Positions 4,208-15,405 of a DNA stretch of 15,649 nucleotides are shown here, piece after piece. A program made the position numbers and the translations under genes. Every line of letters begins with the position of its first letter. Position 1 is the first letter of the stretch. Source of the stretch: a virus. Below the pieces are notes generated by a model. It did no database searches. It saw nothing but the letters and a program-made list of their open reading frames with translations, and was not told the origin of the DNA. The stretch lies in the UHGV virus genome UHGV-0257549. One strand, given 5' to 3'.

Positions 4208-4948
4208 TTAACTGTCGGTGACGGTGATTTCTGCAACCACAGCAAGTTCACCATTACCGGATACAACCGGAATGTTGACCTTGCCTGCAGCAACACCTTT
4301 CACGGTGATGGTCATACCACTGACCGACACGGTGGCTTTTGTTTTATCCGCAGACACCGCACGGAAGCTCTTGTCGGTTGCGCCTTCCGGCTGGAATGCC
4401 ACGGTCAGCGTGGTGCTCTGCCCTTTCACCACCGAGGTGCTGGCAGGCGTCACGGTCATGCCGGTTGCCGCTGTGACCGTGCTGCGATCTTCTGCCATCG
4501 ACGGGCGTCCCACATTGGTGACCTTCACCGTGCGGGTGATCACTTCCTTCGCCGTCACCGCTTTACCGATACTGCTGACCCAGCCACGGAACACATCGAC
4601 CGTGCCGTTCGGGAAGCGGATTTTATAGGCACGGGTATCACCTTCATTAAACCACGCCAGCAGCGCCTGCTGCCCCTGCTCTCCGGGCATCCACGCCAGC
4701 GTGAAGCTGGTATCTCCGGCTGATTTCTGCCCCTGCCCGGTCGCAGTCCAGTCCGCATCTTCATCATCGAGATAGCTGTCGTCATAGGACTCAGCGGTCA
4801 GTTCGCCGGGCGTCAGGTCTTTAACTTTTGCCAGACGCGACCAGTCAACGTCTGAAAGCGGATTCGCATAAGGGTCACCGCTCCCCTTATAAACCCACAG
4901 GGTGGTCCCGGCACCTTTCACCGGCATTACAGGATTTGGTACAGGCAT
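4208..4948 (-). CDS. V: Major tail tube protein V (gpV), 246 aa, with C-terminal Ig-like domain
   Basis: ORF track gives 4208..4978; I place the start at the ATG at 4946-4948 ([16 protein letters not shown]), which has GAGGA about 7 nt upstream. The upstream ATG lies inside the end of U. 246 aa matches lambda gpV. The C-terminal Thr/Val/Ser-rich segment is typical of a Big_2-like domain. Confidence 0.9.
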
Positions 4949-4955
4949 AGCGTCC

Positions 4956-5351
4956 TCACATTTCATAGGTAATGACATAAGTCAGATCGGCTGAACTCCA
5001 CAGGCCCGCATCATCGTCGCGTCGGTAGTCATAGCCACTGGCCACCATACTGGTGATCAACTCTGACAGTGCCGGGATATCGCTCATCACCGGATAAATC
5101 CGGGACTCCATCCACGCATCCAGCTCTGAATCCGGCACCTGAGCAGGCAGGAAAACTTCGATATGCAGCTCCGCCTGCCAGGTATCGCTGTCCAGCTCTT
5201 CGCCCGTGTATTCAGCGCCGGTGAGATAAACGGCAACTGCCGGAAAATCCGCCTCATCAAAAACAGCGGGGCGACCATCAAAAAACGTCGCCCCGGTGTC
5301 ATGCTTCTCCAGTGCATCCAGTACGGCTGCACGGAGTTCAGTATGTTTCAT
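4956..5351 (-). CDS. U: Tail terminator protein U (gpU), 131 aa
   Basis: ORF 4956..5351 (-), 131 aa, [17 protein letters not shown]; length and sequence match lambda gpU from memory. Start overlaps the Z stop (ATGA). Confidence 0.93.
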
Positions 5352-5926
5352 CGCTTTATTACCATCCTCAGTTGATGCTGCAGCGCATAGCCCAGCTCTT
5401 TCGGAAGACGTTCACGCCGTATCCGCTCAATATTTTGTTTAAACGCCGTGGTCAGCGGCACCGCCATCGGGATTTTCACCACATCAATGGGGTAACGGTT
5501 TTTCCTGGCCACACGCTGCATGACATGCCACCGGCCATTTTTCAGTTGCTGAATAAACGCGCCGGGAATACGACGGTTTCCCACCACAAGCACGCTGCCG
5601 CCACCTTTCAGGGATGAACGCTGCCCCTTTTTACGACGTCTGCGGCGGGAAAGGACAACCCGCGCGTTACCCAGCTTGATTACGGGCAAATCCCCCCGGT
5701 TAACCCTGATTCTGGCCTGCGGATTTTTGACCGTGGCCCTTTTCAGCCTGGCCCTTTCCTTTACCAGTTTCCGGCGTACCTTTGTCTCACGGGCAACCTG
5801 TGACGCAGACTGCGATATCGCGGATGACGCAACGCGGTTAATGGCCATTGCGGCGGCACCAGGCACCGCCGTTTTGCTGATACGGCTGAGGTTTTCAACG
5901 GCCTGCTCAAGACCTTTTATGGCCAT
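5348..5926 (-). CDS. Z: Tail completion protein Z (gpZ), 192 aa
   Basis: ORF 5348..5926 (-), 192 aa, MAIKGLEQAVENLSRISK, with a basic RRRRRKKGQR patch; matches lambda gpZ length and sequence from memory. Confidence 0.93.
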   Translation of the reverse strand: MAIKGLEQAVENLSRISKTAVPGAAAMAINRVASSAISQSASQVARETKVRRKLVKERARLKRATVKNPQARIRVNRGDLPVIKLGNARVVLSRRRRRKKGQRSSLKGGGSVLVVGNRRIPGAFIQQLKNGRWHVMQRVARKNRYPIDVVKIPMAVPLTTAFKQNIERIRRERLPKELGYALQHQLRMVIKR

Positions 5927-5937
5927 ACATCCCCCTT

Positions 5938-6291
5938 TCAGCGGCGACGGTTAACGGCAGGCGGCACGCCACGCCCAAGCCAGAGATGACAGCTTCCGCC
6001 ATCATCCGGCGAAATCCGGTCCACCCAGAAGTTTTCCTCGCCGATGGTCAGTGTGTCTCCACGCCGCAGCTGCCGCACATCATCAGTCCGGACAAACAGG
6101 GACGGGCTGGAGCCTTCAACGCGCACCCCCTGTCCGGCATAGCTGATATTTTCAGGGTCATCAAAAACACCACGTATCACAGCACCGGACAGCTCACCGG
6201 ATGTCATGGTGGCTGACGTTCCCATGTACCCGCGTATCGTTTCATCGGCGCGGGCAATGGCAGCATCGAACAGGTTATCGGAATCAGCCAC
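5938..6291 (-). CDS. FII: Head-tail connector/head completion protein FII (gpFII), 117 aa
   Basis: ORF 5938..6291 (-), 117 aa, MADSDNLFDAAIARADETIRGYMG; matches lambda gpFII from memory. Confidence 0.93.
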   Translation of the reverse strand: MADSDNLFDAAIARADETIRGYMGTSATMTSGELSGAVIRGVFDDPENISYAGQGVRVEGSSPSLFVRTDDVRQLRRGDTLTIGEENFWVDRISPDDGGSCHLWLGRGVPPAVNRRR

Positions 6292-8768: not shown

Positions 8769-9482
8769 CCGGGACTGCAGTGTTTCCCGGACATCATCCG
8801 GTAGATGGCTGTAGGGGTTGCCATCCACCTTATGGCTGCCGCTGTAAATCAGCGTGATTTCCACGCCCTGTTTCTCCAGCGCAGCACCGTAATTACTGTG
8901 AGCCATCATGACGCCGATGGAGCCTGTCCGGGCGGTCTGCGTGACCAGACGTCGGGAGGCGGCGCTGGCAAGCAACTGACCTGCACTGCAGTTCATGTCG
9001 TTGGCCAGCGCCCATACCGGCTTTATGTCACGCACACGGGCGATGATGTCAGCGCAGTCAAATGCCCCTGCCACCATCCCGCCTGGCGTATCCATATCGA
9101 GCAGAATGCCGTCCACCATCGGGTCGCTGGCAGCCTGTTGCAGACGGGCGATAATGCCGTTGTAACCGGTCATCCCCGAATACGGCTGCAGCGCTCGCGT
9201 CCGACTGACCAGCGTGCCGGACACCGGCAGCACGGCGATGCCGTTCATGACCTGATAACTGCGGGCCTGTCGTGGTCCGTCATCATCAACGGATAACGCC
9301 AGCGCCGCGGGTGCCTCTCCGGCAGTCAGGCTGTCGCCGGATACCGCATCCGTCAGGCGGCTGATCCCAAGCTGGCCTGCAAGCGCACAAAAGAAAACCC
9401 GCGCATAGGCGGGTTCAAGCATCAGCGGCTCATTAAAGGCCATACTGGCAATATGCGGGAGATTACGCAGCTCTGCTGTCAC
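8163..9482 (-). CDS. C: Capsid assembly protease / prohead protease C (gpC), 439 aa, GTG start
   Basis: The track ORF (484 aa) extends upstream into B. A GTG at 9480-9482 preceded by GGAGGAG gives VTAELRNLPHIASMAF and 439 aa, the lambda gpC length. ClpP/S49-like protease region present. Overlaps the B 3' end by 20 nt. Confidence 0.88.
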   Translation of the reverse strand: MTAELRNLPHIASMAFNEPLMLEPAYARVFFCALAGQLGISRLTDAVSGDSLTAGEAPAALALSVDDDGPRQARSYQVMNGIAVLPVSGTLVSRTRALQPYSGMTGYNGIIARLQQAASDPMVDGILLDMDTPGGMVAGAFDCADIIARVRDIKPVWALANDMNCSAGQLLASAASRRLVTQTARTGSIGVMMAHSNYGAALEKQGVEITLIYSGSHKVDGNPYSHLPDDVRETLQSRMDATRRMFAQKVSAYTGLSVQAVLDTEAAVYSGQEAIDAGLADELVNSTDAITVMRDALDARKSRLSGGRMTKETQSTTVSATASQADVTGVVQATEGENASAAQPDVNAQITAAVAAENSRIMGILNCEEAHGREEQARVLAETPGMTVETARRILAAAPQSAQARSDTALDRLMQGAPAPLAAGNPASDAVNDLLNTPV

Positions 9483-10746
9483 TCTTCTCCTCCTCTGTTG
9501 ATTGTCGCAGCCCGGATTCAAATGCCGCAGCCGCCCAGGCGGGCGGTTTAAGACCGGCTGCACGGCGCTCCATCGTTTCACGGACCTGCTGGGCAAAAAT
9601 TTCCTGATAGTCGTCACCGCGTTTTGCGCACTCTTTCTCGTAGGTACTCAGTCCGGCTTCTATCAGCATCACCGCTTCCTGTACTTCTTTCAGACCATCG
9701 ATGGCCATACGACCGGAGCCTATCCAGTCGCAGTTCCCCCAGGCACTTCGGGCTTCCTGAAAACTGAAGCGCGCTTTTGAAGGTAACGTCACCACGCGGC
9801 GAACGATGGCCTCTTCCAGCCAGCACAGAAACATCTGGCTCGCCTGACGGGATGCGACGAATTTTCGCCGCCCCATAAAGTACGCCCACGACTCGTTCGC
9901 ACTGGCCCGTGCCGTGGAGTAGCTCATCTGGGCGTAATTCCGGGAAAGCTGCTCATACGAGACACCCAGCCCGGCAGCGATATACCGCAGCAGTGACTGC
10001 TCAAACACGGAGTAGCCGTTATCCGTATCCTGAGCCGTCTGCAGGTTCAGTGAGTCACCCGGCATCAGGTGCGGTACTTTTGCGCCTCCCAGCCGGACCG
10101 GCGCTGCGGCGTAATACGCGGCAATTTCACCAATCCAGCCGGTCAGCCTTTCCCGCTGCTCCTGACTGTTCGCGCCCAGAATAAAATCCATCGCTGACTG
10201 CGTATCCAGCTCACTCTCAATGGTGGCGGCATACATCGCCTTCACAATGGCGCTCTGCAGCTGCGTGTTCTGCAGCGTGTCGAGCATCTTCATCTGCTCC
10301 ATCACGCTGTAAAACACATTTGCACCGCGGGTCTGCCCGTCCTCCACGGGTTCAAAAACGTGAATGAACGAGGCGCGCCCGCCGGGTAACTCACGGGGTA
10401 TCCATGTCCATTTCTGCGGCATCCAGCCAGGATAGCCGTCCTCGCTGACGTAATATCCCAGCGACGCACCGCTGTCATTAATCTGCACACCGGCACGGCA
10501 GTTCCGGCTGTCGCCGGTATTGTTCGGGTTGCTGATGCGCTTCGGGCTGACCATCCGGAACTGTGTCCGGAAAAGCCGCGACGAACTGGTATCCCAGGTG
10601 GCCTGAACGAACAGTTCACCGTTAAAGGCGTGCATGGCCACACCTTCCCGAATCATCATGGTAAACGTGCGTTTTCGCTCAACGTCAATGCAGCAGCAGT
10701 CATCCTCGGCAAACTCTTTCCATGCCGCTTCAACCTCGCGGGAAAA
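9463..10746 (-). CDS. B: Portal protein gpB-derived segment of the fusion ORF (lacks its own N-terminal ~106 codons and start codon)
   Basis: C-terminal 427 aa of the fusion ORF match lambda gpB residues ~107-533 from memory. No W gene and no B initiation region are present upstream. Confidence 0.85.
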   Translation of the reverse strand, partial: FSREVEAAWKEFAEDDCCCIDVERKRTFTMMIREGVAMHAFNGELFVQATWDTSSSRLFRTQFRMVSPKRISNPNNTGDSRNCRAGVQINDSGASLGYYVSEDGYPGWMPQKWTWIPRELPGGRASFIHVFEPVEDGQTRGANVFYSVMEQMKMLDTLQNTQLQSAIVKAMYAATIESELDTQSAMDFILGANSQEQRERLTGWIGEIAAYYAAAPVRLGGAKVPHLMPGDSLNLQTAQDTDNGYSVFEQSLLRYIAAGLGVSYEQLSRNYAQMSYSTARASANESWAYFMGRRKFVASRQASQMFLCWLEEAIVRRVVTLPSKARFSFQEARSAWGNCDWIGSGRMAIDGLKEVQEAVMLIEAGLSTYEKECAKRGDDYQEIFAQQVRETMERRAAGLKPPAWAAAAFESGLRQSTEEEKSDSRAA

Positions 10747-12651
10747 GGCACGGGCGTAATCTGCCAGTGTTTTCTTGTTGGTTGCTGCACCATCCTCTTC
10801 CTGCAGGCTCGCCAGCAGTGCACTGAGATCCAGCTGCCAGCGGGAAATACTGATGCGCAGCGCCGCCAGCGCATAAACGAAGCAGTCGAGCGCCTCATTG
10901 CGTCGCTTTTTGCTGTCCCACAGTATTTTTTTCCTGCCATCCACCCATTTTTCGACCTGCTCTTCAGCAGTCAGCTGCTGCGCTTCGGTCAGATCAAAAA
11001 TATCCGGGTTATTCGGGAAGTGAACGGCACCGGGAAGCGGTTCATCCCCTTCCGGCGTCAGTGTGAAGCGGTTATAAATCTGCTCTTTCGCGGTATCCGT
11101 ACCGATTTCGGTAAGGTAAACCCCGTTTTTGTTTCGCTTACGAGGCATGCTGGCCACCGGCTTACCGTAGACGGATGCCCCTTTAATGGGGATCACCCGG
11201 AACAGCCCATGCTTTTTCGAGCGTTCATACACAATGGTCGGGTCAATCCCGCCAATATCCCAGCAGATACGGGATATCGACATTTCTGCACCATTCCGGC
11301 GGGTATAGGTTTTATTGATGGCCTCATCCACACGCAGCAGCGTCTGTTCATCGTCGTGGCGGCCCATAATAATCTGCCGGTCAATCAGCCAGCTTTCCTC
11401 ACCCGGCCCCCATCCCCATACGCGCATTTCGTAGCGATCCAGCTGGGAGTCGATACCGGCGGTCAGGTAAGTCACACGGTCAGGAACGGGCGCTGAATAA
11501 TGCTCTTTCCGCTCTGCCATCACTTCAGCATCCGGACGTTCGCCAATTTTCGCCTCCCACGTCTCACCGAGCGTGGTGTTTACGAAGGTTTTACGTTTTC
11601 CCGTATCCCCTTTCGTTTTCATCCAGTCTTTGACAATCTGCACCCAGGTGGTGAACGGGCTGTACGCCGTCCAGATGTGAAAGGTCACGCTGTCAGGCGG
11701 TTCAATCTCTTCACCGGATGACGAAAACCAGAGAATGCCATCACGGGTCCAGATCCCGGTCTTTTCGCAGATATAACGGGCATCAGTAAAGTCCAGCTCC
11801 TGCTGGCGGATGACGCAGGCATTATGCTCGCAGAGATAAAACACGCTGGAGGGGTCATCCGGCGTCCATTTGAGGCCAAACGGCGTCTCTTTGTCGCCAA
11901 ATTTAAGATACTGCTCCTCCCCGCAGTGCGGGCAGGCAACATGAAAACGCATAAAATGCGGGGATTCACTGGCTGCACGCTCAATCTGGCAGGTGCCTCT
12001 CACTTTGGGCGTGGAGCCACGGATGGACTTTGGCCAGACCGAGCCTTCAATACGTTTGTCGCCAAGGAACGTCGGAGAGCCTTCCTGTTCAATATCCTCA
12101 TCAAAGGCAGCAAGTTCATCATAACCCGCCACATCCACCGACTTTTCACGGTAGTTTTTTGCCGCTTTACCGCCCTGGCACCAGAAGCCACGACCATTGG
12201 AAAAACGCTTCATAGTGAGCGTGTTATCCCGGTGCTTTTTGCCATACCACGGAGCCAGCGCCAGCAGCGACGGAATATCGCGGATGGTCGGCTCAACGTG
12301 GGTTTTCATAAAGTTCTCGGCATCACCATCCGTCGGCAACCAGATAAGTGTGTTGCGCTGCTTATGCTCTATAAAGTAGGCATAAACACCCAGCAGCATT
12401 TTGGAATAACCGACACGGGCAGACTTCACCACATTCACCTCACGGATGTAGTCGCTGCCCATCGCATTCATGATGGCCCGCTGAAAGGGCAGTGTTTCCC
12501 AGCGCCCTTCCTGGTATGCGGATTCTTTCGGGAGATAGTAATTAGCATCCGCCCATTCAACGGCGGTCTGTGGCTCCGGCCTGAACAGTGAGCGAAGCCC
12601 GGCGCGGACAAAATGCCGCAGCCTGTTAACCTGACTGTTCGATATATTCAC
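9463..12651 (-). CDS. A: Fused terminase large subunit (gpA, residues ~1-635) and portal protein (gpB, from residue ~107) in one 1062-aa reading frame; gene W absent
   Basis: Single uninterrupted ORF 9463..12651 (-). The N-terminal ~635 aa are terminase large subunit (MNISNSQVNRLRHFVRAG..., Walker A-like KSARVGYSK). Sequence after ...KKTLADYARA continues directly as portal (FSREVEAAWKEFAEDDCCC... to acidic tail EEEKSDSRAA). The start overlaps Nu1 by 26 nt and the end overlaps C by 20 nt, as in lambda. Confidence 0.9.
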   Translation of the reverse strand: MNISNSQVNRLRHFVRAGLRSLFRPEPQTAVEWADANYYLPKESAYQEGRWETLPFQRAIMNAMGSDYIREVNVVKSARVGYSKMLLGVYAYFIEHKQRNTLIWLPTDGDAENFMKTHVEPTIRDIPSLLALAPWYGKKHRDNTLTMKRFSNGRGFWCQGGKAAKNYREKSVDVAGYDELAAFDEDIEQEGSPTFLGDKRIEGSVWPKSIRGSTPKVRGTCQIERAASESPHFMRFHVACPHCGEEQYLKFGDKETPFGLKWTPDDPSSVFYLCEHNACVIRQQELDFTDARYICEKTGIWTRDGILWFSSSGEEIEPPDSVTFHIWTAYSPFTTWVQIVKDWMKTKGDTGKRKTFVNTTLGETWEAKIGERPDAEVMAERKEHYSAPVPDRVTYLTAGIDSQLDRYEMRVWGWGPGEESWLIDRQIIMGRHDDEQTLLRVDEAINKTYTRRNGAEMSISRICWDIGGIDPTIVYERSKKHGLFRVIPIKGASVYGKPVASMPRKRNKNGVYLTEIGTDTAKEQIYNRFTLTPEGDEPLPGAVHFPNNPDIFDLTEAQQLTAEEQVEKWVDGRKKILWDSKKRRNEALDCFVYALAALRISISRWQLDLSALLASLQEEDGAATNKKTLADYARAFSREVEAAWKEFAEDDCCCIDVERKRTFTMMIREGVAMHAFNGELFVQATWDTSSSRLFRTQFRMVSPKRISNPNNTGDSRNCRAGVQINDSGASLGYYVSEDGYPGWMPQKWTWIPRELPGGRASFIHVFEPVEDGQTRGANVFYSVMEQMKMLDTLQNTQLQSAIVKAMYAATIESELDTQSAMDFILGANSQEQRERLTGWIGEIAAYYAAAPVRLGGAKVPHLMPGDSLNLQTAQDTDNGYSVFEQSLLRYIAAGLGVSYEQLSRNYAQMSYSTARASANESWAYFMGRRKFVASRQASQMFLCWLEEAIVRRVVTLPSKARFSFQEARSAWGNCDWIGSGRMAIDGLKEVQEAVMLIEAGLSTYEKECAKRGDDYQEIFAQQVRETMERRAAGLKPPAWAAAAFESGLRQSTEEEKSDSRAA

Positions 12652-13171
12652 TCAGCAACCCCGGTATCAGTTCATCCAGCGCGGCTGCTTTGTTCATGGC
12701 TTTGATGATATCCCGTTTCAGGAAATCAACATGTCGGTTTTCCAGTTCCGGAAAACGCCGCTGCACCGACAGGGGGATCCCGTCGAGAATACTGGCAATT
12801 TCACCTGCGATCCGCGACAGCACGAAAGTACAGAATGCGGTTTCCACCACTTCAGCGGAGTCTCTGGCATTTTTCAGCTCCTGTGCGTCGGCCTGCGCAC
12901 GCGTAAGTCGATGGCGTTCGTACTCAATAGTCCCTGGCTGGAGATCTGTCTCGCTGGCCTGCCGCAGTTCTTCAACTTCCCGGCGCAGCTTTTCGTTCTC
13001 AATTTCAGCATCCCTTTCGGCATACCATTTTATGACGGCGGCAGAATCATAAAGCACCTCATTACCCTTCCCACCACCCCGCAGAACGGGCATTCCCTGC
13101 TCCTGCCAGTTCTGAATGGTACGGATACTCGCGCCGAAAATGTCAGCCAGCTGCTTTTTGTTGACTTCCAT
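12626..13171 (-). CDS. Nu1: Terminase small subunit Nu1 (gpNu1), 181 aa
   Basis: ORF 12626..13171 (-), 181 aa, MEVNKKQLADIFGASIRTIQNWQEQGMPVLRGGGKGNEV (winged helix-turn-helix at the N-terminus). Lies immediately adjacent to cosB. Confidence 0.95.
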   Translation of the reverse strand: MEVNKKQLADIFGASIRTIQNWQEQGMPVLRGGGKGNEVLYDSAAVIKWYAERDAEIENEKLRREVEELRQASETDLQPGTIEYERHRLTRAQADAQELKNARDSAEVVETAFCTFVLSRIAGEIASILDGIPLSVQRRFPELENRHVDFLKRDIIKAMNKAAALDELIPGLLSEYIEQSG

Positions 13172-13196
13172 TGTTCATTCCACGGACAAAAACAGA

Positions 13197-13312
13197 GAAA
13201 GGAAACGACAGAGGCCAAAAAGCCCGTTTTCAGCACCTGTCGTTTCCTTTCTTTTCAGGGGGTGTTTTAAATAAAAACATTAAGTTATGACGAAGAAGAA
13301 CGGAAACGCCTT
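13197..13312. repeat. cosB: three gpNu1-binding R elements (core GGAAACG / CGTTTCC) with intervening IHF-site region
   Basis: R1-like ggaaacgacag at 13201..13211, R2-like inverted ctgtcgtttcc at 13238..13248, R3-like cggaaacgcc at 13301..13310. Spacing and orientation match the lambda cosB layout. Confidence 0.75.
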
Positions 13313-13348
13313 AAACCGGAAAATTTTCATAAATAGCGAAAACCCGAG

Positions 13349-13360
13349 AGATCGCCGCCC
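13349..13360. other. cosN cohesive-end sequence (joined form); 12-nt overhang region
   Basis: Plus strand agatcgccgccc is the reverse complement of GGGCGGCGATCT. This equals the lambda cohesive end GGGCGGCGACCT except for one base, by my recollection. Flanked by right-end sequence ...cgtaacctgtcggatc. Confidence 0.75.
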
Positions 13361-13395
13361 CGTAACCTGTCGGATCGCCGGAAAGGACCCGCAAA

Positions 13396-13412
13396 ATGAT
13401 AATAATTATCAT
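13396..13412. repeat. Perfect 17-bp palindrome atgataat-a-attatcat near the cosQ side of cos
   Basis: 8-bp inverted repeat with 1-nt spacer, read directly from the sequence. Function unknown (possible protein-binding site). Confidence 0.5.
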
Positions 13413-13559
13413 CTACATGTCACAACGTGCATCTACGCCATCAAACCACGTCAAATAATCAATTATGACGCAGGTATCGTATTAATTGATCTGCATCAAC
13501 TTAACGTAAAAACAACTTCAGACAATACAAATCAGCGACACTGAATACGGGGCAACCTC

Positions 13560-13754
13560 ATGTCAACGAAGAACAGAACCCGCAGAACAACAACCCGCAA
13601 CATCCGCTTTCCTAACCAAATGATTGAACAAATTAACATCGCTCTTGAGCAAAAAGGGTCCGGGAATTTCTCAGCCTGGGTCATTGAAGCCTGCCGTCGG
13701 AGACTAACGTCAGAAAAGAGAGCATATACATCAATTAAAAGTGATGAAGAATGA
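13560..13754 (+). CDS. Small basic protein, 64 aa, YlcI/DUF3950-like with predicted ribbon-helix-helix DNA-binding fold
   Basis: ORF with ATG at 13560 preceded by GGGG about 8 nt upstream. Arg/Thr-rich N-terminal arm, then IRFPNQMIEQINIALEQKG..FSAWVIEACRRRL, a typical beta-strand/helix/helix RHH pattern. The equivalent position in E. coli cryptic prophages holds a similar small gene (ylcI), from memory. Confidence 0.6.
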   Translation: MSTKNRTRRTTTRNIRFPNQMIEQINIALEQKGSGNFSAWVIEACRRRLTSEKRAYTSIKSDEE

Positions 13755-13854
13755 ACATCCCGCGTTCTTCCCTCCGAACAGGACGATATTGTAAATTCAC
13801 TTAATTACGAGGGCATTGCAGTAATTGAGTTGCAGTTTTACCACTTTCCTGACA

Positions 13855-13882
13855 GTGACAGACTGCGTGTTGGCTCTGTCAC
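13855..13882. terminator. Hairpin between the convergent YlcI-like ORF and the lambdap79-like ORF (8-bp stem gtgacaga / tctgtcac, 12-nt loop)
   Basis: Inverted repeat read directly. Located between two convergent stop codons. No clean U-tract, so terminator function is uncertain. Confidence 0.3.
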
Positions 13883-13918
13883 AGGCTAAATAGTTTGAAT
13901 GATTAGCAGTTATGGTGA

Positions 13919-14125
13919 TCAGTCAACCACCAGGGAATAATCCTTCATATTATTATCGTGCTTCACCAACGCTGCCTCAATTGCTCTGAATGCTTCCAGA
14001 GACACCTTATGTTCTATACATGCAATTACAACATCAGGGTAACTCATAGAAATGGTGCTATTAAGCATATTTTTTACACGAATCAGATCCACGGAGGGAT
14101 CATCAGCAGATTGTTCTTTATTCAT
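13919..14125 (-). CDS. Hypothetical protein, 68 aa (lambdap79 / YbcW-like)
   Basis: ORF 13919..14125 (-), [27 protein letters not shown]. Same size and position as the 68-aa right-end ORF of lambda. AT-rich codon usage, unlike the structural genes. Confidence 0.7.
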
Positions 14126-14287
14126 TTTGTCGCTCCATGCGCTTGCTCTTCATCTAGCGGTTAAAATATTACTTCAAATCTTTCTGTATGAAGATTTGAG
14201 CACGTTGGCCTTACATACATCTGTCGGTTGTATTTCCCTCCAGAATGCCAGCAGGACCGTACTTTGTTACGCAACCAATACTATTAA

Positions 14288-14821
14288 GTGAAAACATTCC
14301 TAATATTTGACATAAATCATCAACAAAACACAAAGAGGTCAGACCAGATTGAAACGATAAAAACGATAATGCAAACTACGCGCCCTCGTATCACATGGAA
14401 GGTTTTACCAATGGCTCAGGTTGCCATTTTTAAAGAAATATTCGATCAAGTGCGAAAAGATTTAAACTGTGAATTGTTTTATTCTGAACTAAAACGTCAC
14501 AACGTCTCACATTATATTTACTATCTAGCCACAGATAATATTCACATCGTGTTAGAAAACGATAACACCGTGTTAATAAAAGGACTTAAAAAGGTTGTAA
14601 ATGTTAAATTCTCAAGAAACACGCATCTTATAGAAACGTCCTATGATAGGTTGAAATCAAGAGAAATCACATTTCAGCAATACAGGGAAAATCTTGCTAA
14701 AGCAGGAGTTTTCCGATGGGTTACAAATATCCATGAACATAAAAGATATTACTATACCTTTGATAATTCATTACTATTTACTGAGAGCATTCAGAACACT
14801 ACACAAATCTTTCCACGCTAA
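14288..14821 (+). CDS. Hypothetical protein, 177 aa (lambdap78 / YbcV-YdfO-like, annotated in lambda as putative envelope protein)
   Basis: ORF 14288..14821 (+). Size and position match lambdap78. The true start is uncertain: an alternative TTG at about 14349 lies 9 nt after AAGAGG. AT-rich. Confidence 0.7.
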
Positions 14822-15111: not shown

Positions 15112-15405
15112 ATGAAAAAAATGCTACTCGCTACTGCGCTGGCCCTGCTTATTACAGGATGTGCTCAACAGACGTTTACTGTTCAAAACAAACCGGCAGC
15201 AGTAGCACCAAAGGAAACCATCACCCATCATTTCTTCGTTTCTGGAATTGGGCAGAAGAAAACTGTCGATGCAGCCAAAATTTGTGGCGGCGCAGAAAAT
15301 GTTGTTAAAACAGAAACCCAGCAAACATTCGTAAATGGATTGCTCGGTTTTATTACTTTAGGCATTTATACTCCGCTGGAAGCGCGTGTGTATTGCTCAC
15401 AATAA
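15112..15405 (+). CDS. bor: Bor outer-membrane lipoprotein (serum resistance, lysogenic conversion), 97 aa
   Basis: MKKMLLATALALLITGCAQQ: signal peptide with lipobox LITG-C. Sequence matches lambda Bor from memory. ATG at 15112 is preceded by an AGGGAATAACACC region. Confidence 0.92.
   Translation: MKKMLLATALALLITGCAQQTFTVQNKPAAVAPKETITHHFFVSGIGQKKTVDAAKICGGAENVVKTETQQTFVNGLLGFITLGIYTPLEARVYCSQ

Follow-up and report, generated by a model that had tools for sequence, protein, structure and literature searches.

A conserved DUF3950 gene beside the cos site of a lambda-like prophage: a probable ribbon-helix-helix protein and candidate prophage-state repressor

INTRODUCTION

What is a reading frame of 64 codons doing beside the packaging site of a lambda-like prophage, at a place where the reference record of phage lambda shows no gene? 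We addressed this question in UHGV virus genome UHGV-0257549, a stretch of 15,649 nucleotides (the window) that holds a lambda-like prophage in reverse complement, with 98.5% identity with lambda and DE3 over 13150..14200. A preliminary description of the same DNA had noted, about 200 bp from cosN on the plus strand, a small open reading frame (ORF) resembling ribbon-helix-helix (RHH) DNA-binding proteins and lacking a lambda counterpart in the reference annotation, and had suggested that its product might regulate the adjacent moron genes or bind near cos. The ATG-to-stop frame (13560..13754, +; 64 codons plus stop), here called ORF64, is present with the sequence quoted there and starts 200 bp from the cosN overhang at 13349..13360. 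Translating lambda complement(48109..48303) gives a protein 100% identical to the ORF64 product; in this interval NC_001416, the lambda reference, indeed carries no feature. Our analysis places ORF64 in an existing protein family and suggests, with a probability that we put at roughly 55%, that it encodes an RHH DNA-binding protein acting as a probably autoregulated, prophage-state repressor at the divergent boundary of the packaging module.

RESULTS

Codon-level evidence and family membership

Judged from its pattern of codon substitution, ORF64 is a translated gene under strong purifying selection. We regard it as a real gene because the ratio of nonsynonymous to synonymous substitution rates (dN/dS) is low, the differences are biased toward third positions, homology starts at the ATG, and curated family models are matched. 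The comparison set the lambda-type locus against copies in Shiga toxin (Stx)-converting phages, whose upstream region is unrelated: similarity between the two types begins exactly at the ATG and ends near codon 50, after which three different tails follow, and pairwise dN/dS over codons 1-51 lies between 0.03 and 0.15. Between the window and phage JLK-2012, the differences at codon positions 1, 2, and 3 number 6, 1, and 24, respectively (24 of 31 at the third). Most of the top 120 protein-search matches and about 40 "genomes" of unrelated bacteria were excluded from the conservation analysis because they are lambda control DNA or noisy reads of a 3.5-kb nanopore control amplicon.

The family to which ORF64 belongs is catalogued. 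The product matches Pfam PF13132 (DUF3950) with 72.8 bits (cut-off 25; E 1.9e-20), NCBIfam NF041551 (YlcI_YnfO_N) with 37.6 bits (cut-off 30), and phrog_949, listed as of unknown function, with E 2.5e-35. It carries the motifs of this family of about 50-80 residues, IRFP at residues 15-18 and NFSAWVIEAC at residues 36-45, and R16, F37, S38, and V41 are invariant in 58 aligned family sequences. Codon-level conservation and the profile search had both been proposed as checks in the preliminary description, and both came out in favor of the gene. ORF64 is thus already known as a member of a family with Pfam, NCBIfam, and K-12 gene names; ynfO is counted among the uncharacterised K-12 genes (PMC11551758), we found no functional study of the YlcI/YnfO/DUF3950 family in the literature, and the published ylcI mutations are variant calls only, which we suspect to reflect cross-mapping between the ylcI and ynfO paralogues.

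The closest known relatives are YlcI of prophage DLP12 and YnfO of prophage Qin in Escherichia coli K-12, which share with ORF64 the family, the orientation, and the place (nohD/nohA, then ylcI/ynfO, then ybcW/ybcV or ydfO). Copies of the ynfO type (77 aa) in E. coli genomes other than K-12 are about 88-93% identical to it, and there is no essential difference beyond a 14-residue tail of its own in ORF64. The preliminary description had placed a ylcI-like gene at the same position in cryptic prophages, and the order nohD-ylcI-ybcW-ybcV-bor in the prophage of E. coli STEC17-190 agrees with it. ORF64 likewise has the location typical of DUF3950 genes, in a lambdoid prophage between lysis or cargo genes and the gene for the terminase small subunit, on the opposite strand. 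In RNA-seq from K-12, the DLP12 copy ylcI and ybcW yield convergent transcripts that overlap, a pair seen in at least half of the samples examined (PMC12288877).

The view that such genes usually go unannotated proved half right. It holds for lambda and many phage records, where the annotated copies (in phage O276, a recent lambda record, and phage 434) appear as "YlcI/YnfO family protein" or as hypothetical proteins with a DUF3950 note, but not for E. coli, where the NCBI pipeline has named the gene in thousands of genomes. Of 5,426 complete E. coli genomes, 3,788 (about 70%) carry the gene along with its upstream region, with up to 12 copies per genome, and its RefSeq name is ylcI or ynfO. 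The family as a whole is narrow, confined to Enterobacterales with a few members in Pasteurellaceae, since only 142 clusters match among 1.84 billion cluster representatives and many of these are frameshifted reads of lambda control DNA.

Several observations on the spread of the family stand apart. About 40 assemblies (Streptomyces, Cohnella, Pedobacter, Shewanella, and others) carry 100% identical lambda sequence, often on 3.5-kb contigs, and ENA contains hundreds of "proteins" that are error-laden copies of ORF64 on contigs of 3.4-3.6 kb; the source of such sequences is contaminating lambda control DNA, probably the amplicon used as a nanopore control. Orphan chromosomal copies of DUF3950 in Tatumella, Salmonella arizonae/diarizonae, and Buttiauxella have unrelated neighbours. 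The orphan of Salmonella enterica subsp. diarizonae and arizonae (L057, L060; 6001..6171) lies in a non-phage context, apparently inside Salmonella pathogenicity island 5 (SPI-5), between a 515-aa peptidase-like gene and the gene for a large protein with a CKSGKDRTG phosphatase motif, which we take to be SopB-like. An unannotated DUF3950 ORF (E 1e-26) is also present in the Pasteurella phage or satellite Pmp7 (OR544138; L004, about 4770..5010, +), antisense to a 675-nt coding sequence labelled "transcriptional repressor," and one of these two overlapping calls is probably wrong.

Predicted ribbon-helix-helix fold

The strand-helix-helix pattern that the preliminary description had read as RHH is in line with our models: topology and fold searches agree, and the fold of ORF64 is very probably RHH, a judgement based on consistency, with no single score reaching significance. 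An AlphaFold2 monomer model built from a 23-sequence alignment (mean predicted local distance difference test score 68, a modest confidence) shows an extended N-terminus followed by helix 1 (residues 19-32; 13614..13655, +), a four-residue loop GSGN (13656..13667, +) that elsewhere in the family varies in length by 0-8 extra residues, and helix 2 (residues 37-61; 13668..13742, +), with the family signature NFSAWVIEAC at its start and a tail beyond about residue 50 that is lineage-specific. The basic N-terminal arm, residues 1-11 (MSTKNRTRRTT; 13560..13592, +), is extended and of low confidence in the model. The ribbon strand, residues 12-18 (TRNIRFP; 13593..13613, +), is predicted from the family alignments, in which I15, R16, and F17 are invariant or nearly so, and from its alignment register with the NLRWP of Arc. 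It is unpaired in the model, which is expected because a monomer cannot form the ribbon. ORF64 is predicted to have the RHH topology of strand, helix, and helix within a domain of about 45 residues.

Searches by structure and by profile point the same way. Foldseek gave no significant E-value (all at least 0.8), with a list dominated by RHH proteins (StnY, NikR, Arc, CopG, ParD, and the MazE9 N-domain). With the 68-member family profile, hhalign placed residues 11-33 on residues 8-30 of Arc, NIRFP falling on NLRWP, at a P value of 0.003 over 23 columns only. A PDB sequence search with the protein and two family profiles returned nothing significant, the best relevant match being the CopG-family protein StnY (E 0.5-0.9), and no Pfam RHH family matched at E values up to 1.

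The resemblance to Arc and Mnt from the immI region of phage P22 is one of build: these are likewise small phage proteins with an N-terminal arm, a strand of the form N-[LIF]-R-[WFM]-P, and two helices. The Arc and Mnt genes are divergent, and both proteins bind operators overlapping promoters. In contrast, ORF64 shows no significant sequence-profile match, its helix-2 signature NFSAWVxEAC is different, and it lies at the packaging-module boundary rather than in the immunity region.

Satellite homologues and a candidate recognition code

The case for a DNA-binding role comes from mobile elements that carry the same gene. In a survey of one genome per species, about half of the genuine homologues lie in integrative elements of 10-20 kb with a recurrent layout. 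An integrase and AlpA come first, in many cases with an AntA-like gene; the DUF3950 gene stands on the opposite strand and is followed by a small gene, a primase, and, further on, an HK97-type capsid gene; a second IMG/VR scan contributed 56 more loci of this kind. The layout is that of capsid-forming phage-inducible chromosomal islands (cf-PICIs), and a cf-PICI survey includes a "YlcI/YnfO family protein" in its gene list, where it passes uncommented (PMC13612085).

For the operator analysis we used 44 non-redundant cf-PICI-like satellites, in which the DUF3950 gene faces the replication operon. Upstream of the gene, all elements show one arrangement of 12-mers of the form GTG-N6-CAC, two and sometimes three of them at 23 bp, with another 46-47 bp beyond (examples are loci L064 at 5850..6000, L005, L055, L062, L082, and L180-L233). 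The last of the 23-bp-spaced 12-mers is followed by GTCAA, which on the other strand forms the -35 element of a leftward promoter, TTGAC(G/A)-18-TAnnnT, in 41 of the 44 elements; in these, repeat O2 falls in the promoter spacer and O1 lies just downstream of the -10. In 33 of 44 elements, a -10-like hexamer (TATAGT, TATGGT, or TATTGT) lies before the DUF3950 gene, and repeat O3 abuts it.

The centre of the 12-mer differs among elements and, with few exceptions, tracks the four residues that precede IRFP. Proteins with TTKG at this position go with GTGCACAAACAC, those with xYKG with GTGTTTAAAYAC, AKKN with TGTGCGCACA, AKKH with GTGTGCACCCAC, ATKK with GTGCGGCCACAC, and QLKN with GTGTGTAGACA. 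Across the 44 elements, the distance between repeats correlates with that between the first 20 residues, i.e., the arm and strand (Spearman 0.42, Mantel p 0.0005; mean region distance 0.28), and not significantly with that between the helices (Spearman 0.10; mean region distance 0.35) or the tails (Spearman 0.04; mean region distance 0.50). Thus the helices and tail show no covariation although they vary at least as much as the arm. Mean repeat distance was 0.15 for pairs sharing the four residues, against 0.40 for the others, and was still 0.20 for those sharing pairs whose tails are divergent. Among 820 twenty-residue windows taken from DUF3950, integrase, primase, AlpA, and the small c4 protein in an initial set of 18 elements, that of the arm ranked top (0.55), and the windows of integrase, primase, and AlpA displayed no covariation with the repeat sequence.

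Because the repeat sequence covaries with the arm and strand, DUF3950 proteins may be taken as a family of sequence-specific repressors; in the simplest reading of these alignments, they would bind the 12-mer repeats through arm and ribbon, repress the leftward replication operon, and regulate their own gene. We found no paper stating that DUF3950 proteins repress this promoter switch in satellites. RHH regulators, such as those of the CopG/omega/ParG type, typically read arrays of short repeats, and the satellite homologues likewise face an array, of three 12-bp repeats over two back-to-back promoters. They differ from those regulators in that binding is deduced from covariation only, and in the family-specific 12-bp GTG-N6-CAC unit with its spacing of 23 and 46-47 bp.

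Some satellites encode longer DUF3950 proteins. In proteins of 120-129 aa (L006 8001..8363, E. coli CP027459; L005 4714..5103), DUF3950 is joined to the N-terminal DNA-binding domain of a P27-type terminase small subunit (TerS), this domain being 60-64% identical to helper-type TerS and 53-58% identical to the satellite's own. These fusions are possible packaging-interference or cos-binding factors, and they recall the way in which Rpp of E. coli PICIs, another small protein tied to cos and TerS, mimics the TerS DNA-binding domain. Rpp redirects helper packaging by binding TerS; it consists of a winged helix-turn-helix and a coiled-coil dimerisation helix (PMC6739421). We rejected an Rpp-type assignment for ORF64 itself, whose predicted fold is not a winged helix-turn-helix (like the N-domain of Nu1) with a coiled coil and which has no sequence relation to Rpp. 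Locus L006 (E. coli CP027459.1, 3711563..3727925) is a capsid-gene satellite apparently inserted in the terS of an HK97-type prophage, leaving a 61-aa TerS fragment at 10696..10881, and it holds three DUF3950 genes within 4 kb, of which one is the helper's, next to HNH, and two belong to the satellite, one of them as a fusion.

A Fur box and promoter candidate beside cosQ

The preliminary description had also singled out a palindrome at 13396..13412 as a gel-shift target for the purified protein. The palindrome exists; its core (13397..13411) is TGATAATAATTATCA, a perfect match to what we take to be the 7-1-7 inverted-repeat consensus of the iron regulator Fur, TGATAATnATTATCA. Even with a tolerance of two mismatches, the window holds no other match, with 0.03 expected, and the box is perfect in 77 of 79 lambda-like viral contigs. 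It lies 6 bp from cosQ (AGGACCC, 13384..13390, placed by means of the cosQ annotation in phage 434 record OL657227 and visible in the sequence), and its centre is 233 bp upstream of the start of Nu1, the terminase small subunit gene (12626..13171, -; Pfam Phage_Nu1, E 4e-101), which diverges from ORF64. In K-12, nohA, the Qin homologue of Nu1, has a Fur site at -233 (22.3 bits) that was gel-shifted and selected by Fur titration in vivo, and nohB of DLP12 has a predicted site at -133 (25.3 bits) (PMC2189734). Since the box is perfect and its Qin counterpart is a demonstrated Fur site, the palindrome is a poor candidate for an ORF64 operator and is, from these matches, best explained as a Fur operator.

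A consensus scan for promoters placed a sigma-70-like candidate, GTGACA-16-TATCAT (13396..13423, -; 10 of 12 consensus matches), with its -10 inside the Fur box, pointing toward cosQ, cosN, and Nu1 and away from ORF64. The number of promoter-like sites in this region does not exceed that in shuffled sequence, so that the promoter is a prediction only. Iron control beside the packaging site seems not to have been discussed previously for lambda itself.

A constant packaging side and a variable cargo side

From left to right, the window holds the terminase genes, cosB, cosN, cosQ, ORF64, lambdap79/ybcW (13919..14125, -), lambdap78/ybcV with DUF1398 (14288..14821, +), and bor (15112..15405, +), and ORF64, like bor and lambdap78, lies on the strand opposite to the late operon. 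A first IMG/VR scan recovered near-identical lambda-like loci only and was used for neighbour statistics alone. In these 80 viral contigs, Nu1 is on the left in all that reach that far, while the right-hand side varies, with bor following directly in 29, ybcW-ybcV-bor in 25, and other arrangements in the rest; in phage 434, too, bor directly follows the ORF64 homologue. In Stx phages with an HK97-type module (HNH, P27-family TerS, TerL), the start of the DUF3950 gene lies 41 bp from the start codon of HNH, on the opposite strand, and after the gene come a TonB-like gene, Rz, or an antirepressor (Ant) gene on the other strand. The sole constant neighbour is therefore the start of the packaging module, cos-Nu1 in lambda and HNH-TerS in Stx phages, and it is always divergent. 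Two phages with Nu1-type terminases, phage 21 and mEp237, lack a DUF3950 ORF in the final 1.7 kb up to cos, which marks the gene as accessory and not as part of the packaging machinery. Together, these neighbour relations argue against an antitoxin, a dedicated regulator of cargo genes, and an essential packaging factor.

Other features of the window

The cosN 12-nt cohesive-end segment (13349..13360), located by comparison with the lambda record in prophage order, reads AGATCGCCGCCC, where lambda has AGGTCGCCGCCC, with one more change 3 bp left of the segment; this is a natural variant. An ORF of 1062 aa (9463..12651, -) fuses the terminase large subunit A to the portal protein B, with the junction near 10729..10757. 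Compared with the intact prophage in E. coli STEC17-190, the window is missing 509 bp, comprising gene W and about the first 100 codons of B, and the prophage is therefore defective for head assembly. An 85-aa ORF (13287..13544, +) takes in cosN, cosQ, and the Fur box, with its end 15 nt short of ORF64. Its last 37 codons are annotated as a hypothetical protein in some lambda records; it had no family match in the Pfam scan and is probably not a gene.

DISCUSSION

The reading that we put forward for ORF64 extends the satellite picture to the phage. The strand TRNIRFP (residues 12-18) would pair with its counterpart in the partner subunit and so build the ribbon that reads DNA, further contacts would come from the basic Arg/Thr arm, and the helices at 19-32 and 37-50 would make up the dimer core. 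The protein, presumably produced in the prophage or cryptic-prophage state, would act as a sequence-specific and probably autoregulated transcriptional repressor, whose target would be the divergent control region before the packaging genes, cos-Nu1-A in lambda and HNH-TerS-TerL in Stx phages. In lambda, the site of action would be the stretch from the ORF64 start to cos, which holds the putative Fur-controlled promoter directed toward Nu1, and in lytic growth late pR' transcription running antisense through ORF64 would switch the gene off. A plausible benefit is that terminase would be kept silent in a lysogen whose chromosome has an intact cos. This repressor role in lambda is drawn by analogy with the satellites and is weakly supported.

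Possible operators upstream of ORF64 are weak leads: an inverted repeat, CGTATTAATTG/CACTGAATACG, at 13478..13488 and 13539..13549; an 11-mer, ACACTGAATAC, found among k-mers common to lambda-type and Stx-type upstream regions, present in two of four Stx-type loci and lying there inside the HNH gene; and, at 13410..13500, four CATCWAM repeats, whose pattern was chosen post hoc. A number of results weigh against a repressor role. The region upstream of the lambda gene holds no satellite-like repeat array, its spaced 12-mers score no better than shuffled sequence, and its best inverted repeat was equalled in 26 of 200 shuffles. The lambda residues before IRFP, TTRN, fit none of the satellite classes. 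The Shine-Dalgarno sequence of ORF64 is weak, and a consensus scan of the plus strand revealed no sigma-70-like promoter for it. The covariation itself derives from satellite homologues that are 40% identical, could stem in part from the operator being physically linked with the gene's 5' end, and has a close runner-up in a window of the small c4 protein (r = 0.52, n = 11).

A more elaborate scheme, which we hold to be doubtful, would cast YlcI and YnfO as unrecognised repressors of the cf-PICI divergent switch, with their code in the four residues before IRFP. The lambdoid copies would then be prophage-expressed paralogues that, together with Fur, silence a terminase promoter crossing cos and so protect the lysogen from cos cleavage, until late antisense transcription relieves the block.

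Among the alternatives is a packaging accessory factor that binds at or near cos and assists or modulates terminase. In its favor, the gene always adjoins the packaging module, next to two unrelated types of terminase, and some satellites fuse DUF3950 to a copy of the DNA-binding N-domain of helper-type TerS (60-64% identity). IHF and the HK97 HNH protein gp74, which assist or modulate packaging, would be the models for such a factor. It is nonetheless unlikely, given that ORF64 is antisense to the late operon encoding the packaging proteins, that phage 21 and mEp237 have Nu1-type terminases yet no DUF3950 ORF near cos, and that the satellite gene sits in the int-alpA/replication control region, far from the satellite's own TerS and capsid genes.

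Regulation of the neighbouring moron genes bor, lambdap78/ybcV, and lambdap79/ybcW, which the preliminary description had considered plausible, is an equally improbable role. Although ORF64 shares its strand with lambdap78 and bor, and a DUF1398 gene directly follows it in Qin-type prophages, this role is not favored, given a packaging-module side that stays constant and a downstream side on which the genes change freely. The next genes differ even among the 80 lambda-like loci, those in Stx phages (TonB-like, Rz, or Ant) lie on the other strand, and the satellites have no such cargo.

Cross-talk between helper and satellite, in which the phage copy would bind satellite operators, or the reverse, and silence or interfere, is wholly speculative and seems quite unlikely. 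The same small family occurs in lambdoid helpers and in cf-PICI-like satellites, and one E. coli locus combines helper, satellite, and fusion copies, but the lambda specificity residues TTRN match no satellite class seen and there is no satellite-type 12-mer near the lambda gene.

An RHH antitoxin paired with a downstream toxin is already disfavored and very unlikely. The best structural matches do include the RHH antitoxins TacA2, Rv0298, VapB12, CopA_SO, and ParD, and there is a weak PHROG match to HicB-like proteins (E 0.02), but no conserved co-oriented partner lies downstream, where genes differ from locus to locus or are missing, the tail at the C-terminus is short and differs between lineages, and the PADLOC defence-system models gave no match. 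On the first two of these grounds, ORF64 is not assigned to the type II RHH antitoxins, with their adjacent co-oriented toxin gene and C-terminal toxin-binding extension. That ORF64 is a chance ORF or a decayed, functionless remnant is hardly credible and already refuted by the codon-level conservation, the matches to curated models, and homologues across Enterobacterales and Pasteurellaceae with their four invariant residues, even if it is unannotated in the lambda reference, its ribosome-binding site is weak, and it has no clear promoter.

Lambda is the reference temperate phage, and its reference record omits a selected gene that is found in about 70% of complete E. coli genomes; ORF64 merits addition to the lambda annotation. 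What the present analysis adds to the existing family entries is codon-level proof of the gene, a consistent RHH fold assignment, a packaging-boundary rule in place of an association with cargo genes, the reassignment of the palindrome to Fur, and a covariation-based case for operator-binding repressors in satellites. If a repressor does act at the packaging boundary, control in lambda lysogens would extend beyond CI, with a further layer tied to an iron-responsive Fur site next to cos. From the satellites come a testable operator and recognition code for an uncharacterised family, which may also include a possible regulator of capsid-forming PICIs, elements whose control has so far been described chiefly in terms of AlpA.

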